64,000 nucleotides of DNA, taken from Kiritimatiellia bacterium. GTDB lineage: Bacteria > Verrucomicrobiota > Kiritimatiellia > RFP12 > UBA1067. Positions 43,716 through 48,514 of this stretch are shown here, in pieces. The DNA is taken from NCBI GenBank assembly GCA_050949565.1, contig JBMNFY010000017.1, positions 960,001 to 1,024,000 on the forward strand. Direction: 5' to 3'. The notes under the pieces are model-generated. The model saw nothing but the letters and a program-made list of their open reading frames with translations. It searched no databases and was not told where the DNA came from. Position numbers and translations under genes: made by a program. Position 1 is the stretch's first letter. Each line of letters opens with the position of its first letter.

Positions 43716-44195
43716 TTATACCTCCCGCTGATTCACCGCATCCAGCAGCAACGCCAGCGCATGTTCCGTCGCTTGGAGACGCACCGCATCGCGATCCCCC
43801 GCAAAGATTTTGTGCCCCGTACGCACGCCATCCGCCGCCGCCAAACCGAAGCAGACCAGGCCGACCGGCTTCTCCGGCGTGCCGCCCGTCGGCCCGGCGA
43901 TGCCGGTCACCGAGACCGCCAGATCCGTCCCCAGCCGACGGCGCACGCCATCCGCCATCGCGGCGGCGCACCTCTCGCTCACCGCGCCCGCCTGTTCCAG
44001 CACCGGCTCCGGCACACCGAGCAACGTCATCTTCGCCGCATTGGCATAACTGACGATACCCCCCAGAAAAACCGCCGAAGCGCCGGACACCGCCGTGATC
44101 CGCGCCGCGACCATCCCGCCGGTACACGACTCCGCCGTCGCCAGCGTCACGCCGCACGCAACACACCTCTCAACCAACCGACTCGCAAGTTCCAT
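43716..44195 (-). CDS. pncC: CinA C-terminal domain / NMN deamidase
   Basis: ATAESCTGG, GAS, YANAAK, GAVS, TGIAGP. Confidence 0.9.
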   Translation of the reverse strand: MELASRLVERCVACGVTLATAESCTGGMVAARITAVSGASAVFLGGIVSYANAAKMTLLGVPEPVLEQAGAVSERCAAAMADGVRRRLGTDLAVSVTGIAGPTGGTPEKPVGLVCFGLAAADGVRTGHKIFAGDRDAVRLQATEHALALLLDAVNQREV

Positions 44196-44249: not shown

Positions 44250-44275
44250 CCCCAGACACGGAGGTCTGGGGCCAC
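44250..44275 (-). repeat. REP of the island family (GTGG-CCCCAGAC-CTCCGT-GTCTGGGG)
   Basis: GTRG tetranucleotide + 8-bp stem; homologous to 45923-45949, 47250-47276, 47614-47685. Confidence 0.85.
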
Positions 44276-44377
44276 GAGATGGAGGGCCGGGGCAACGAGA
44301 TGGAGGGCCGTGCGAGCCGAGCGCGTGTTGTATGTGTGCGCCGTCGGGCGCGGGCGTCCCCGCCGCTGAAAATTGAG

Positions 44378-44564
44378 CCTAAAAAGAGCAGTTGAACCTT
44401 CAACTCTCTTTGGTTTCTGGTTTCATGGTTTCAAGGTTTCATGGTTTCAAGGTTTCATCCAAATCGGGATCGGGATCGCTATCGGGATCGATTGTTTAAC
44501 CACGGAACACACCGAACACACGGAAAGGCATGGTTCTGTTTCCGTGTGTTTAGTGTGTTCCGTG
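44378..44564 (-). repeat. ~190-bp composite repeat, copy C
   Basis: Reverse complement of 10895-11085. Confidence 0.9.
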
Positions 44565-44695
44565 TGTTAAGTCACGGCTCCAGGTTAACACTTGGTTCTT
44601 GATGGTTGGTTGAACATTGATGACATAGGTCGCGGAGCCCAAGCCACCAATCACAAAGGCGACTGTGACGGGTCGCGCAACACCGTGCGCGCCCC

Positions 44696-44800
44696 GTCAC
44701 AGTCGCCTTTCGGCTGAATCGCTGTTTTGGACTGTAGCACTTTTTTAGGTGGTTTTACAAGGATTTTTTGATGATTTTCGGCGGTTTTCGGAGGCAGACG
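44696..44800 (-). CRISPR. Solitary CRISPR-like repeat (GTCCAAAACAGCGATTCAGCCGAAAGGCGACTGTGAC, 44732-44696) with AT-rich leader-like upstream sequence
   Basis: 37 nt, GTC start, GCC-GAAA-GGC hairpin, GTGAC end, A-tract leader, directly downstream of two CARF genes; no second direct repeat. Confidence 0.45.
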
Positions 44801-44829
44801 CCCCCCCAAAAAACCTCTGCGTCTCTGCG

Positions 44830-45909
44830 TTAAATAGACTCCGGTAGCGGCGTAGGCGGGATGCCGACCAGATCGACCGCCAGGCTAAAAAAGGTGCGTG
44901 CTTCTCTGGTGTTCGCCGGACGTATCGCGTGTGTCGCTTCGTTGCGGATGTCGCAGTACTTTTTGAGCTTGCCGCTGAAATTCGTGCCGAAGGGATGCCC
45001 TAAATCGTTGAGTATTTTGACGATGTTCTGGAGACCAAGCGTCATATCGCGGCCTTTGCCTTCGGAGACAAATGACGTGCGCAACCCATCGATCTGCGCT
45101 CTTTCGTAACGGCCATCCCCGTCGGGCTTGATTCCGGTCTTTTCTTCAAGAAAAAGGCGGGCGGCGTGTTCGAGTGCCTTGTAGGTCAGGCAGAACGAAC
45201 CGTCTGGATCGTCGTGGCGCAGGGCGTGATCCGACCATGCAAGAATATCGGCCACGATATCGCGCGGCGCACGATTCTCAAGGCGTTTGTCATAAGCCTT
45301 GGCGCGGTCATAATCGAAGCGTCGCCAATGGTGACAGGTGTAGGCGGTCGCCCACTCTTTGGCATGCGTCTGGTTGTGCGGCCTGAGAATGCGTTCGGCG
45401 GCGTAGAAGTCGCCCGCGTCAAAAAAGTCACGCGCAAGCACCAAATCCCGCTCGCGGAAATAACCGGCTGGGTTGAAGGCGGTGATGCGCTCGGTGCCGG
45501 TCTTGACGACGCCGTCGGCTCGATCGCCGGTGGTGAACACGATGTCGCCGATCTGTTCGTCGAGCGCGGCCAACGTGGCGGCGGCGGTCATCTGCTTGGT
45601 GCCGGATGTCGGGTTGACGAGCAGGCGCTCGCCCTCCTTCACCTGGCCGCGCACCCGGCGTATCACCGAGCGGATATGCTGCCGGGAGGATTCCAGGTCG
45701 TCCGGATGTTCCAGCGGGAAGCGCCCGCCGTACGAAGCGTGGCCTTCGGCGATCAGGTCGGCGATGGCCAGCGAGTCCGGCGCGGTCGAAGGGACGAGCC
45801 AGAACTTGCGGGGGTTGAGCAGCTCGAGCGTGCGGCGCAAGCCGGAGGCGAGGTCAGAGTGTCTGCCGGCTGTGCCGGTGCCGACGGTGAGGATGAGTAG
45901 GTTTGTCAT
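44830..45909 (-). CDS. CARF-HEPN CRISPR ancillary protein (TIGR02710/Csm6-like)
   Basis: LILTVGTG strand 1, VNPTSGTKQM CARF motif, C-terminal RNEATH (RxxxxH). Confidence 0.75.
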   Translation of the reverse strand: MTNLLILTVGTGTAGRHSDLASGLRRTLELLNPRKFWLVPSTAPDSLAIADLIAEGHASYGGRFPLEHPDDLESSRQHIRSVIRRVRGQVKEGERLLVNPTSGTKQMTAAATLAALDEQIGDIVFTTGDRADGVVKTGTERITAFNPAGYFRERDLVLARDFFDAGDFYAAERILRPHNQTHAKEWATAYTCHHWRRFDYDRAKAYDKRLENRAPRDIVADILAWSDHALRHDDPDGSFCLTYKALEHAARLFLEEKTGIKPDGDGRYERAQIDGLRTSFVSEGKGRDMTLGLQNIVKILNDLGHPFGTNFSGKLKKYCDIRNEATHAIRPANTREARTFFSLAVDLVGIPPTPLPESI

Positions 45910-45922
45910 GGGTGTTCCTTTC

Positions 45923-45949
45923 CCCCCGGACACGGAGGTCCGGGGGCAC
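45923..45949 (-). repeat. REP of the island family
   Basis: GTGC-CCCCGGAC-CTCCGT-GTCCGGGG just upstream of the RBS of the 45909 gene. Confidence 0.85.
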
Positions 45950-45970
45950 GAGAACGGGGTGACGAGATGG

Positions 45971-47232
45971 TTAGCAAAGCAGAGCCTCAAACTTCGTGAT
46001 GGCGTCGCCGAGATCCTTTTTCAGCTTTTCTGCCTTCCTGGCATTGTGGCTGTGGCCGCCGTGATTGATGTCGTTTCGCCCTTGCGTCAAAGTATCATAG
46101 TGCTTCTCCACCTCCGGATCGATTTTGTCCTTTAGTTTCTCGGCCAGTCCGCTATCCTCTTTCTTCCAAGAGCCGGTTCTCCAAGCGAGCAGCGCTGAAG
46201 TATATTCACGGCGCTTCACTTCATCTTCGCGTTTGGGGTAGAGCCTTTTCAGGTCAGCGACGAACTCCTGCGCGTAGTACGAGACGATCGTCTCCTGCAA
46301 AAGCGTGTAGCCTTGCGGGATCAAATCGTGCTCATACGCCCAGCGCGCCGCGCGTATGCCGTTTTTCAAATCTTTGTCCTGATACGCCGCGAAAACGTCG
46401 CCCAACCCTGCCAACACCGGCTTCAACTGCGGTAGCTCGCTACATTGCGTTGCCGGTCCCAACTGATTCAAAATGTTCGACTCGAAATTGAAATCCTGAA
46501 TATCTTTGCAACGGCTGGAATGAACCATCTGTGTGAACTTGTTAAGAGCGCCGGTTAAACTACGCAGCGCGAGTAATTCATCGGTGCGCGTCTCCTCTTT
46601 CGCGGCCAATGGTTTAGTGTCTTGCCAGGCGAGTCTGTTCAGATCGCCGGCATCGCCGAAGCGCTTGAAATCGCGGATCGCCTTCACCCAGTCATTAAGT
46701 TGAAAGAACGGGGTCAGGTCGAAGATCGGAGCGCGGCGATCAGCGGGATCGGGATACTCTTTCTCCACATCAGCCGCCCTGCCCAGCACTTCGAAGGCGC
46801 CGTAGTAGCACCCGACCAGCTTCGTGCCCTTTACGACTTCGAGGTAGTTGAGCAGCACGGACATTATCAGCGGCAGGGAGCGGAAGGAGTGGGTGACATC
46901 AAAAACGATCTCTGCCTCTTCGGGAATGTGTTCGTTGACCGTTTCAAAAATCTCCCAAAACTCTTCGACGCTGGAGCCGCCCGGTATGCCGACCTTCTCT
47001 GGCTCGGGCAATCCGTGCGTGTCAAATTCCGCGCATAGCTTCTGCCAATGCGTTTCCGCAGCATCCCGCGTACAGAAAATGAGCGTTTTTCTGCGCCGCA
47101 GGCTACAAGCTTGCGCATGGCGGTCTGCACATAGGTGACCACTCCCGAATCGCTGGCGGGGGCATCGGGCTTGAGATAGACACAGGGCTTATAGGTGCCG
47201 GTGCCGAGGAACGATACGTAGGTTTTTTTCAT
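45971..47232 (-). CDS. csx1: Csx1-type CARF-HEPN ribonuclease (TIGR02221-like), one-base frameshift at 47086-47090
   Basis: VSFLGTGTY, FDVTHSFRSLP, YYGAFE, PIFDLTPF, RNDINH; adding one A to the A5 run joins the two ORFs (AEKTLIFCT...). Confidence 0.8.
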
Positions 47233-47249
47233 GGTTGTTTCTCCTCTCC

Positions 47250-47276
47250 GCCCCGGACACGAAGGACCGGGGCTAC
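47250..47276 (-). repeat. REP of the island family
   Basis: GTAG-CCCCGGTC-CTTCGT-GTCCGGGG between RAYT stop and csx1 RBS. Confidence 0.85.
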
Positions 47277-47289
47277 GATAATGGGGTGG

Positions 47290-48228
47290 CTAGGGTGGGG
47301 TGTGGGTTTTTAGCAGGGTTTCGAGTGTGCCGCCGGGGCGGATGTAGCCGTGCGTGATACGCGCGGCGCGATCCAGCACATAGCGGTTGCACCAGATGGC
47401 GCGTTGTTTGTTGATACCGGTGCCGGGTGCCGAGGGCGAGAGCACCAGCGCCCAGCCCTCCGCACAGGCACGCGCGACAGCAGGCGGCAACCGCTTCGGT
47501 ATGCCGCCGGGCATGACGTGTATAAAGGGGCGCCGCACAGCCAGGCAACGCGCCAGCACACCGCGCTCCTGCGGGCTGGTAAAGGTAGAAATAACAGGTG
47601 CTGGACACGGAGGGGCTGGACACGGAGGTCCAGCCTTACGATATCGAGTGTCCGTATCGTGGGGCCGGACCTCCGCGTCCGGCCCCTCTGAGGCCACATA
47701 CGCCACCAGCGCCTCATGCAGCAACTCGAGATTGCCGCAGTGGTAGGTAGTCACGGGGCCGAAACGGTCGTTATCCCAGCGGGCGGGATTGTCACGCACA
47801 TAGGCGCGGATGTTCTCAAGCTCGCGGCGCGAGGTGATCAGGTTGTCATAGTAGCTGGACATCCAGAGACTGGTGCCGATGTCCGGGCACTGTCCGGCCC
47901 GGACGGCGGCGTGGTACAGATGCGTCGTGAAGCTTTTGAACCCCTGTATCAGGTAAGAGAGGTGGTTGGGTTTGTTTGTCGGGCGGCGGTGAATGCGGAT
48001 CACGGCGTGAAAGTGATTGGGCATCACGACGGATGCGTCGCGGTATGCCTCCGGATGACGCGCAAACATGCCCTCCCAACTGCTTCCGACCTTCTCTCCC
48101 AGAGCGTTCAACTCGCACTTGTCATCCGCAATGACACCGAACATCGTCTTGTTCTGCGCGACCTGCATCGTGACAAAGAACCAGCCGTCGGAGTAGTTGA
48201 TGTTCGAATTGCGGAGCGGGTTGGACAT
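47290..48228 (-). CDS. REP-associated tyrosine transposase (RAYT, HUH Y1) fused to a DprA/SMF-like SLOG domain
   Basis: YSDGWFFVT, VVMPNHFHAVI, GFKS, W..SYYD.LI...EL..IRAYV..NP..W; C-terminal GNLELL...VISTFTSPQE...G.ALVLSP...A..CNRYV...PGGTL. Confidence 0.85.
   Translation of the reverse strand: MSNPLRNSNINYSDGWFFVTMQVAQNKTMFGVIADDKCELNALGEKVGSSWEGMFARHPEAYRDASVVMPNHFHAVIRIHRRPTNKPNHLSYLIQGFKSFTTHLYHAAVRAGQCPDIGTSLWMSSYYDNLITSRRELENIRAYVRDNPARWDNDRFGPVTTYHCGNLELLHEALVAYVASEGPDAEVRPHDTDTRYRKAGPPCPAPPCPAPVISTFTSPQERGVLARCLAVRRPFIHVMPGGIPKRLPPAVARACAEGWALVLSPSAPGTGINKQRAIWCNRYVLDRAARITHGYIRPGGTLETLLKTHTPP
47614..47685. repeat. Inverted REP doublet inside the RAYT ORF
   Basis: GGCTGGACACGGAGGTCCAGCCTTAC and GTGGGGCCGGACCTCCGCGTCCGGCCC; a partial third copy at ~47600. 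Confidence 0.8.
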
Positions 48229-48248
48229 GGGGCCTTACCTGTGGTCGC

Positions 48249-48278
48249 ATGGTAAACCAGCAAGACGGATAAAGTCAA
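48249..48278 (-). promoter_or_regulatory. Putative sigma70 promoter of the RAYT-CARF operon
   Basis: TTGACT-18 nt-TACCAT, 20 nt upstream of ATG 48228. Confidence 0.55.
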
Positions 48279-48514
48279 ACCCACATTCGGAAAGGGGAAA
48301 AGCGAGCAGTTAAAGCCAATCCGGACCGGGTCTAATTTGGTGAATCTGGCCGTTTCGTCGAAGCGGCCAGATTCACTTGAACCCACAAATTGCCGATTTT
48401 GGTCACTTTTCCCCTGTTTCTGCTTGACCCAACGGGGTTTATCATAGAAACTACCGAATTACCGCGCCCTTGTGGCGTGATGGAGAACGTTTGTTCCACG
48501 GGAAAGAACGCGCG

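Follow-up and report, generated by a model that had tools for sequence, protein, structure and literature searches.

A 64,000-nt stretch of the genome of a Kiritimatiellia bacterium (hereafter the window; G000:C17:960001-1024000, from a genome of 4.66 Mb in 21 contigs, 92% complete) harbours a minus-strand island of CRISPR-related genes bounded by the core genes cinA/pncC (43716-44195, minus strand) and mreB (plus strand, starting at 48470 or 48515). A preliminary description, made from the letters of the sequence, had read the island as promoter, RAYT fused to a DprA/SLOG-like domain, two CARF-HEPN RNases, A-rich stretch and single CRISPR-like repeat, and all of these parts are present in that order. 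Seen beside its sister strains, the island is very probably a type III-B (Cmr) locus that lies between mreB and cinA, has been truncated naturally and has a resident RAYT. This agrees with one of the two readings first offered, the stump of a deleted type III locus: L043 and L047 carry cas10 to cmr1 at the exact site, and in the window the cmr promoter and the last part of cmr1 survive. The nearest protein matches are labelled as metagenome-assembled genomes of Kiritimatiellia, Lentisphaerae or Verrucomicrobia.

Full, cmr-less and RAYT-only alleles

The metagenome contig L043 aligns with the window at 99.66% identity over 49851-48398 and at 99.82% over 48241-40000, and the 6.5 kb between the two aligned blocks encode Cas10, Cmr3, Cmr4, Cmr5, Cmr6 and Cmr1, exactly between mreB and RAYT. 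The same layout is seen in L045 and in L047 and L053, which are identical to each other; relative to the window, the insert measures 6.4-6.5 kb in L043 and L047. On the window side, a sigma-70-like promoter (TTGACT-18-TACCAT; 48249-48278, minus strand) stands directly before RAYT, and the same sequence in L047 is followed by cas10. Between this promoter and the RAYT gene lies a deletion scar (AGGTAAGGCCCC; 48229-48241, minus strand) made up of the last cmr1 codon, its stop and a spacer before the RAYT ATG. In L043 and L045 cmr1 ends as ...ATCATCAGGTAA and the RAYT ATG comes 6 nt later; the window junction reads ...GCGACCACAGGTAAGGCCCC-ATG, that is, promoter region, last cmr1 codon and stop, and RAYT. 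The deletion edges have a short direct repeat in common, GATCA(C/T)CA (GATCAcCA / GATCAtCA).

The course of events that we propose starts from the sister strains, where one promoter would drive cas10-cmr3-cmr4-cmr5-cmr6-cmr1, the RAYT-DprA-like gene and two CARF-HEPN RNase genes. In the present strain a 6.4-6.5 kb deletion between the short direct repeats would have taken all six effector-complex genes and thus joined the promoter to RAYT. The adaptation genes and the array would already have been reduced to one repeat before the cmr deletion. Without Cas10 no cyclic oligoadenylate (cOA) would then be made, leaving both CARF-HEPN RNases orphaned, one of them already frameshifted.

Loss of cmr happened more than once. 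The junction of the window is common to L001 and L046, and a second one (L044, L051, L052) retains ~60 nt of cmr1; with two distinct junctions, the loss must have occurred at least twice, independently. L001 and L046 are also without the CARF-HEPN genes (genes 2 and 3), and each aligns to the window in two blocks that overlap, by 29-55 nt, at a copy of a repetitive extragenic palindromic (REP) hairpin, as is characteristic of a repeat-mediated deletion, here of 44321-47247. Judged from these alignments, the CARF module was lost in both strains by recombination between direct REP copies, the left partner lying between RAYT and gene 2 (47251-47293, minus strand) and the right partner, accompanied by two half units, before cinA (44250-44321, minus strand). 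Comparison of the cinA-mreB interval among relatives, as the preliminary description had advised, has in this way revealed three allelic states within one species, namely the complete locus, the locus without cmr, and RAYT on its own. Full loci differ among themselves as well. The cmr4-cmr5-cmr6-cmr1 modules of L043:4635-8000 and L047:4852-8000 are unalignable with flanks ~95% identical, and one breakpoint of the swapped module falls early in cmr4, just past a REP hairpin, and the other precisely where RAYT begins. Further relatives (L015, L016, L017) hold full type III-B gene sets with Cas10, Cmr3-6, Cmr1, CARF proteins, Cas1 and Cas2.

In the 92%-complete genome we found no Cas10/Cmr2, Csm1, Cmr4, Cas6 or SMODS cyclase; TIGR02577 and TIGR02578 gave 0 matches, and tblastn with the Cas10 of relatives found none. 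Cmr3-Cmr6 and Cmr1, present at the same site in L043 and L047, were not found in the genome, and Cas1 and Cas2 match only on contig C8, beside a type I-C array. The earlier statement that no cas1, cas2, cas6 or cas10 lies within the 64 kb is correct and, for cas10 and cas6, extends to the genome. Cmr2 had no match in the genomes of L004 and L001 either, which may be incomplete. Because the genome holds neither Cas10 nor any other activator source that we found, the CARF-HEPN RNases are orphaned, and they are presumably effectors that stay inactive without cOA.

Several points weigh against a simple history of truncation. L043 is nearer to the window (99.8%) than are L001 and L046 (95%), though the latter two carry the window's scar; alleles at this site have therefore been exchanged between strains by recombination. 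L043 may have regained the cassette, rather than the window having been the last to lose it, and the order of events is unsettled. Purifying selection on genes 2 and 3, measured between the window and L004, could mean that they function without cmr, although the upstream side of L004 is unassembled. Lastly, 92% completeness leaves room for a Cas10 on unassembled DNA.

The CARF-HEPN genes and the solitary repeat

Gene 2 (45971-47232, minus strand) encodes a Csx1-type CARF-HEPN protein of the TM1812/DxTHG kind with an RNDINH motif (TIGR02221, 89 bits, over the 76-bit cut-off); it also matches PDB chains 8y75, 8y7g and 8y6z at ~E 2e-8, and its intact orthologue is recognised by PADLOC as CARF2-CARF_HEPN (E 1.6e-94). 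The Csx1-like assignment and the motif had been predicted correctly, but the gene is not intact: 1 nt is missing from an A5 run (47086-47090), which divides it into 46867-47232 and 45971-47011. At this site L004 has AAAAGACG and an intact 421-aa product, and the frameshift is common to the window and L043. A programmed -1 frameshift was considered; the A5 run has no proper slippery heptamer, so we treat the change as a mutation. Gene 3 (44830-45909, minus strand) is of the Cas02710/TIGR02710 type, carries RNEATH and is intact, with 359 aa from its ATG (PADLOC CARF1-CARF_HEPN, E 2.5e-30); many of its 371 homologues have PF09670. Both genes show a HEPN Rx4-6H motif (RNDINH, RNEATH), in a whole frame in gene 3 and a broken one in gene 2. 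Comparison of the window with L004 gives ratios of non-synonymous to synonymous substitution rates (dN/dS) of 0.22 (gene 2) and 0.26 (gene 3); only four amino-acid changes underlie the second value.

Gene 3 is followed by an A-rich, leader-like stretch (44733-44829, minus strand) and the solitary 37-nt CRISPR repeat (44696-44732, minus strand). In relatives, the repeats of type III arrays are 37 nt long and end in GCCGAAAGGC(G/A)ATT(G/A)AGAC; with these the solitary repeat aligns along its whole length; set against the 3' half of the L014 type III repeat, 18/20 core positions are equal, and 0/100 shuffles match. The repeat is homologous to the type III-B arrays of L014, L015 and L016. Its only other trace in the genome is an inverted partial copy of its 3' end 27 nt away (44650-44669, plus strand), and one full repeat with one inverted partial copy does not make a CRISPR array. 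A hairpin at 44655-44710, considered as a terminator or a REP, is actually the repeat paired with this inverted copy in a palindrome with 25-bp arms.

The genome search that had been suggested for cas10, cas6 and arrays with this repeat thus found none of them, although two other arrays exist. One, of I-C type, has a 33-nt repeat in 80 copies and adjoins cas1 and cas2 (array at C8:398318-403593, within the tract C8:396853-403593); the other, of I-E type, lies where a contig ends and has a 29-nt repeat in 79 copies (C10:1-4800). The repeats of both are unrelated to the solitary repeat.

The A-rich stretch taken for a leader does exist, but much of the interval so named is dispersed repeat DNA, namely a MITE-like (miniature inverted-repeat transposable element) repeat at 44373-44564 and the REP unit at 44250-44321. 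The former, 187-192 nt long and situated between the solitary repeat and cinA, has 163 BLAST matches in the genome (~30 near full length, 82-99% identity) and is an insertion, not a component of the system. A 54-nt segment at 44569-44622 is 100% identical at four other sites (C5 twice, C10, C18); contigs of several sequencing runs diverge at 44622, and the segment probably forms the terminus of a further repeat family. The first 30 nt of the A-rich stretch (44800-44829) are a module common to a satellite outside the window (C17:453479-455428), which has a 120-bp unit in 17 near-identical tandem copies and is composed of modules CCTCTGCGTCTCTGCG and CATGAAAC, as in the dispersed repeats of the genome. 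Matches to 44800-44829 with a 120-nt period, considered as an odd array, belong to this plain satellite without spacers. In the mreB-RAYT spacer, a hairpin with 18-bp arms (48340-48376, 94% complementary) is kept in L001 and L046 and replaced in L043.

The RAYT-DprA-like protein and its REP hairpins

The RAYT open reading frame (ORF; 47290-48228, minus strand, 312 aa) comprises an HUH/Y1 nuclease (residues ~1-158) fused to a DprA/SLOG-like Rossmann domain (~160-312). It matches Y1_Tnp (PF01797) and REP_Tyr_transpos (NF047646), the latter with 45.3 bits, under the NCBIfam equivalog cut-off of 80. No DprA sequence profile matched the ORF, a Pfam search with E up to 0.1 giving PF01797 only, and PADLOC has no model fitting it. 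An AlphaFold model (predicted local distance difference test, pLDDT, of 91; predicted template modelling score 0.81), in which linker residues 190-204 fall below a pLDDT of 50, was searched with Foldseek. Its N-terminal half resembles TnpA of IS200/IS608/ISDra2 and the E. coli RAYT 4er8 (probability 1.00, TM-score 0.64 on target, root-mean-square deviation 2.7), and its C-terminal half resembles DprA (3uqz, 3maj, 4ljk, 5mll) and ShosA (8zva) with a probability of 0.99-1.00. Since the C-terminal half of the model matches DprA and ShosA structures, the label RAYT-SLOG/DprA is right at fold level; 'SLOG' is the name that we take to suit this domain. With the two CARF-HEPN types, the RAYT and DprA-like folds complete what profile and structure searches of the three proteins bore out.

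Nearly all of the 411 RAYT homologues are full length. Across 109 aligned sequences, H72 (of H72-F-H74), H74 and Y143, presumably the catalytic positions, are invariant, as are C-terminal residues that include S214, P240, G242, S264, P265, N273, K274, W279, C280, N281, G299 and G300; the linker is hypervariable. The gene has a dN/dS of 0.21 and is the one copy of its subfamily in the window genome, along with three or four distant paralogues. In L004, L051 and L052 the RAYT core has lost 150 nt (50 aa) without a change of frame. From its sequence, the window protein appears to be a catalytically intact HUH/Tyr single-strand DNA nuclease and a stable resident of the site. In the mode of action that we postulate, RAYT would nick REP DNA while its DprA-like domain keeps hold of the single-stranded DNA.

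The REP hairpins have a 5' tag (T)(A/C)TCGT-NN, a variable 8-11-bp stem and the loop CTCCGT, and their stems, beside or inside the RAYT gene, show compensatory changes across relatives of 53-95% identity. Five copies lie in the island: the two deletion partners before gene 2 and cinA, one before gene 3 in the gene 2/gene 3 interval (45924-45966, minus strand), and an inverted, REPIN-like pair inside the RAYT ORF (47602-47696), which encodes the hypervariable linker residues 190-204. Genome-wide there are 11 CTCCGT hairpins with a stem of at least 7 bp, 8 of them with the TCGT tag, as against 0-2 tagged hairpins per loop for 25 permuted loops. This hairpin type is found inside or adjoining the RAYT gene in L001-L005, L009, L013, L014, L043, L047, L048 and L125, and in the cmr3-cmr4 interval of L002, L014, L043, L047 and L048; none was seen in L015-L017, L037, L059, L060, L064 or L072, nor in the I-C-linked RAYT loci. 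A search of Rfam with the REPIN hairpin gave sub-threshold microRNA matches only. By these sequence patterns, the hairpins are the probable cognate elements of RAYT. Copies sit in and around the RAYT gene and between cas modules, and recombination among them removes modules, as exemplified by the CARF module.

The protein and its hairpins resemble known RAYT/TnpA-REP systems (E. coli 4er8; Pseudomonas REPIN-RAYT) in the HUH and Tyr core, the RAYT fold and the single subfamily copy, as well as in the tagged hairpins with compensatory stems that flank the gene and the inverted REP pair. They differ from them in the C-terminal DprA-like domain, the few REPs (~10 in the genome), the REPIN in the linker of the ORF itself, the recurrent embedding in cas operons and the score under the NCBIfam equivalog cut-off. 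The predicted Rossmann-like fold is shared with DprA/Smf and SLOG-superfamily domains, including ShosA of Shosta defence (8zva). Unlike DprA/Smf, the window domain is reduced (~150 aa), has no Pfam DprA match and is fused to a nuclease, and its binding of single-stranded DNA or a ligand is putative.

RAYT and CRISPR-Cas loci in the class

A rival view, which we hold improbable, sees in the RAYT-DprA-like protein no passenger but a genuine accessory factor of CRISPR systems, with a part in adaptation or in the recombination of arrays or cassettes, or with the role of a nicking effector; the island would then keep a working part of the system. The gene neighbourhoods give this idea its substance. 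In 7/39 genomic loci RAYT follows cmr1 on the same strand after 6-24 nt (168 nt in L003), and in L015 and L017 RAYT and the following CARF gene overlap at the RAYT stop; loci of this kind are complete type III-B systems with several CARF effectors, cas1, cas2 and arrays. The best 80 of 177 metagenome relatives include 13 with cmr directly upstream and 8 with a type I-C cas1 beside RAYT, whose place in these I-C loci is the cas7-cas1 interval or a position following cas1 or cas2. Both locus sets, genomic (39) and metagenome (80), favour near relatives and include multiple strains of a single species, which tempers these counts. In L006, cas1, cas2 and NE0113 lie downstream of RAYT. In a RAYT tree built without L037 and L039, which are too short, the cmr-linked rows form two separate deep clades, the window being nested in one of them. 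The invariance of the catalytic residues also favours an accessory role, as does a second, distant RAYT-like gene of L016 (L016:14765-15778, 337 aa) that lies between a CARF gene and cas1 and overlaps the CARF stop. A 50%-identical orthologue of this second gene exists in the window genome at C17:288919-289884. The complete type III-B locus of L016 further contains a CARF-adenosine deaminase fusion directly after RAYT (L016:11014-13047).

A broader sample is less favourable. Among 401 genomes of the Kiritimatiellia class, one per species, the RAYT family occurs in 89 and Cmr4 in 45, both in 17, and the two share a contig in 1. Within ~8 kb on either side of the best 60 RAYT places in this one-per-species set, cas genes were found near 2/17 closer homologues (one III-B, one I-C) and 0/43 distant ones; the neighbourhood survey proposed in the preliminary description has thus shown that linkage to CARF genes recurs, but that cas genes are seldom close by. 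At L131:8010-12278, in a type I-C locus, a 4.3-kb block of the RAYT-DprA-like gene and ~3 kb of other DNA splits cas1 from cas2 and looks like an insertion. An accessory role is further at odds with the 50-aa core deletion of L004, L051 and L052, and with L001, where RAYT alone is kept under purifying selection.

Two specific roles were considered and given up or weakened. As a substitute for Cas6, RAYT would fit the result that 0/5 genomes with RAYT-linked III-B loci show a Cas6 match. The absence of Cas6 does not discriminate, because Cas6 (TIGR01877) is found in only 3/401 genomes as against 45/401 for Cmr4, and most genomes with Cmr4 are without the RAYT family; type III-B systems of the class seem to be without a recognisable Cas6. 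The SLOG domain as a cOA sensor is weakened by the presence of the family in I-C loci and by at least 72/89 family-bearing genomes without a Cmr4 match. Type I-C systems use no cOA, and the occurrence of RAYT in both III-B and I-C loci therefore argues against cOA sensing.

The preliminary description had held that its proposal of a RAYT-CARF module would fall if relatives carried a full type III operon at this site, with RAYT a recent unrelated insertion and no recurrent linkage to CARF genes. Relatives do carry the operon; RAYT, which holds the slot after cmr1 in two deep RAYT clades, is not a recent arrival, and its linkage to CARF genes recurs. The link between RAYT and CRISPR loci is best read as real but lineage-limited, with a REP/RAYT unit lodging and being kept in recombination-prone cas loci. 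A CRISPR-related function of RAYT is rated as a minority prospect. We regard it as unlikely that RAYT-DprA-like nucleases and REPs are a built-in device of Kiritimatiellia CRISPR-Cas loci and a new CRISPR-associated class, and it is just as doubtful that the HUH nuclease, recruited into III-B and I-C operons, works on module-boundary hairpins or repeat DNA and so drives cassette exchange, array turnover or adaptation.

That RAYT and the CARF-HEPN RNases form an autonomous, Cas10-independent defence or toxin module is very improbable. The promoter-RAYT-CARF-CARF unit has been retained in several strains after two independent cmr losses, the CARF genes have a dN/dS of 0.2-0.26, and contigs from two RNA libraries of two studies span RAYT, gene 2 and parts of gene 3. 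However, gene 2 is frameshifted in the window and L043, the CARF genes are deleted in L001 and L046 and the RAYT core in L004, L051 and L052, and no cOA synthase was found in the genome. The RNA-library contigs continue at the RAYT start into sequence unlike the window, as a cmr-bearing allele would; one has the L043-type left junction, which fits such an allele in those samples. RNA libraries can hold DNA, and these contigs are no proof of transcription; coverage was taken from contigs only, and uncovered parts are uninformative. The second reading in the preliminary description, with RAYT carrying, controlling or triggering CARF effectors, is superfluous and finds no support, on related grounds: RAYT stands alone in L001 and L046, there is no cOA source, and the family occurs in I-C loci. 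Least credible is a missing cmr operon through a collapsed or mis-joined contig, which a break of the Logan contigs of DNA runs X1 and X2 at 48200-48229, suggesting an assembly-graph branch, might favour, but independent assemblies join mreB straight to RAYT (the window, L001 and L046 by one junction, L044, L051 and L052 by another) and the depth of X1 and X2 is about equal on either side of the junction.

DNA runs that each contain at least 92% of the island words sampled number 14 or more, from 12 coded studies, and are labelled as anaerobic digester, biogas, landfill or sludge metagenomes and in one case plain 'metagenome'. Set beside the loci of relatives, the island is like type III-B systems with Csx1/Csm6 CARF-HEPN proteins in its gene families, gene order (cas10-cmr3-4-5-6-1, CARF, cas1-cas2) and 37-nt repeat ending ATTGAGAC. 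Unlike a complete system, the window has neither effector complex nor adaptation genes and retains a single repeat; unlike the usual type III-B arrangement, a RAYT-DprA-like gene lies between cmr1 and the CARF genes, and a recognisable Cas6 is missing from all five genomes with RAYT-linked loci. Orphan or degraded CRISPR loci in defence-island hotspots flanked by core genes offer another likeness, with strain-variable presence at a fixed core-gene interval and modules swapped by recombination, but here the series of states is unusually complete (two cmr losses, a REP-mediated CARF loss and a cmr4-cmr1 swap).

In the sections of the literature compared, transposases near type III modules are treated as non-cofunctional (Shah et al. 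2018, PMC6546367) and TnpA-Y1 subclasses with unnamed additional domains are described (Quentin et al. 2018, PMC6006769). Neither these sections nor those of Makarova et al. (2025, PMC12669027) were found to mention a RAYT/HUH accessory of type III loci or a RAYT-DprA fusion, although the supplements may list such clusters. Within that compass, we found no description of a RAYT-DprA fusion or of RAYT as a fixed member of cas operons.

The island itself would be an ordinary decaying CRISPR locus, but its natural series of states is unusually clear and shows how a type III system is dismantled. The costly effector complex would go first, here twice independently, and the signalling RNases later, through REP recombination. 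If the CRISPR link of RAYT were functional, the long-unexplained RAYT/REP systems would be tied to adaptive immunity.

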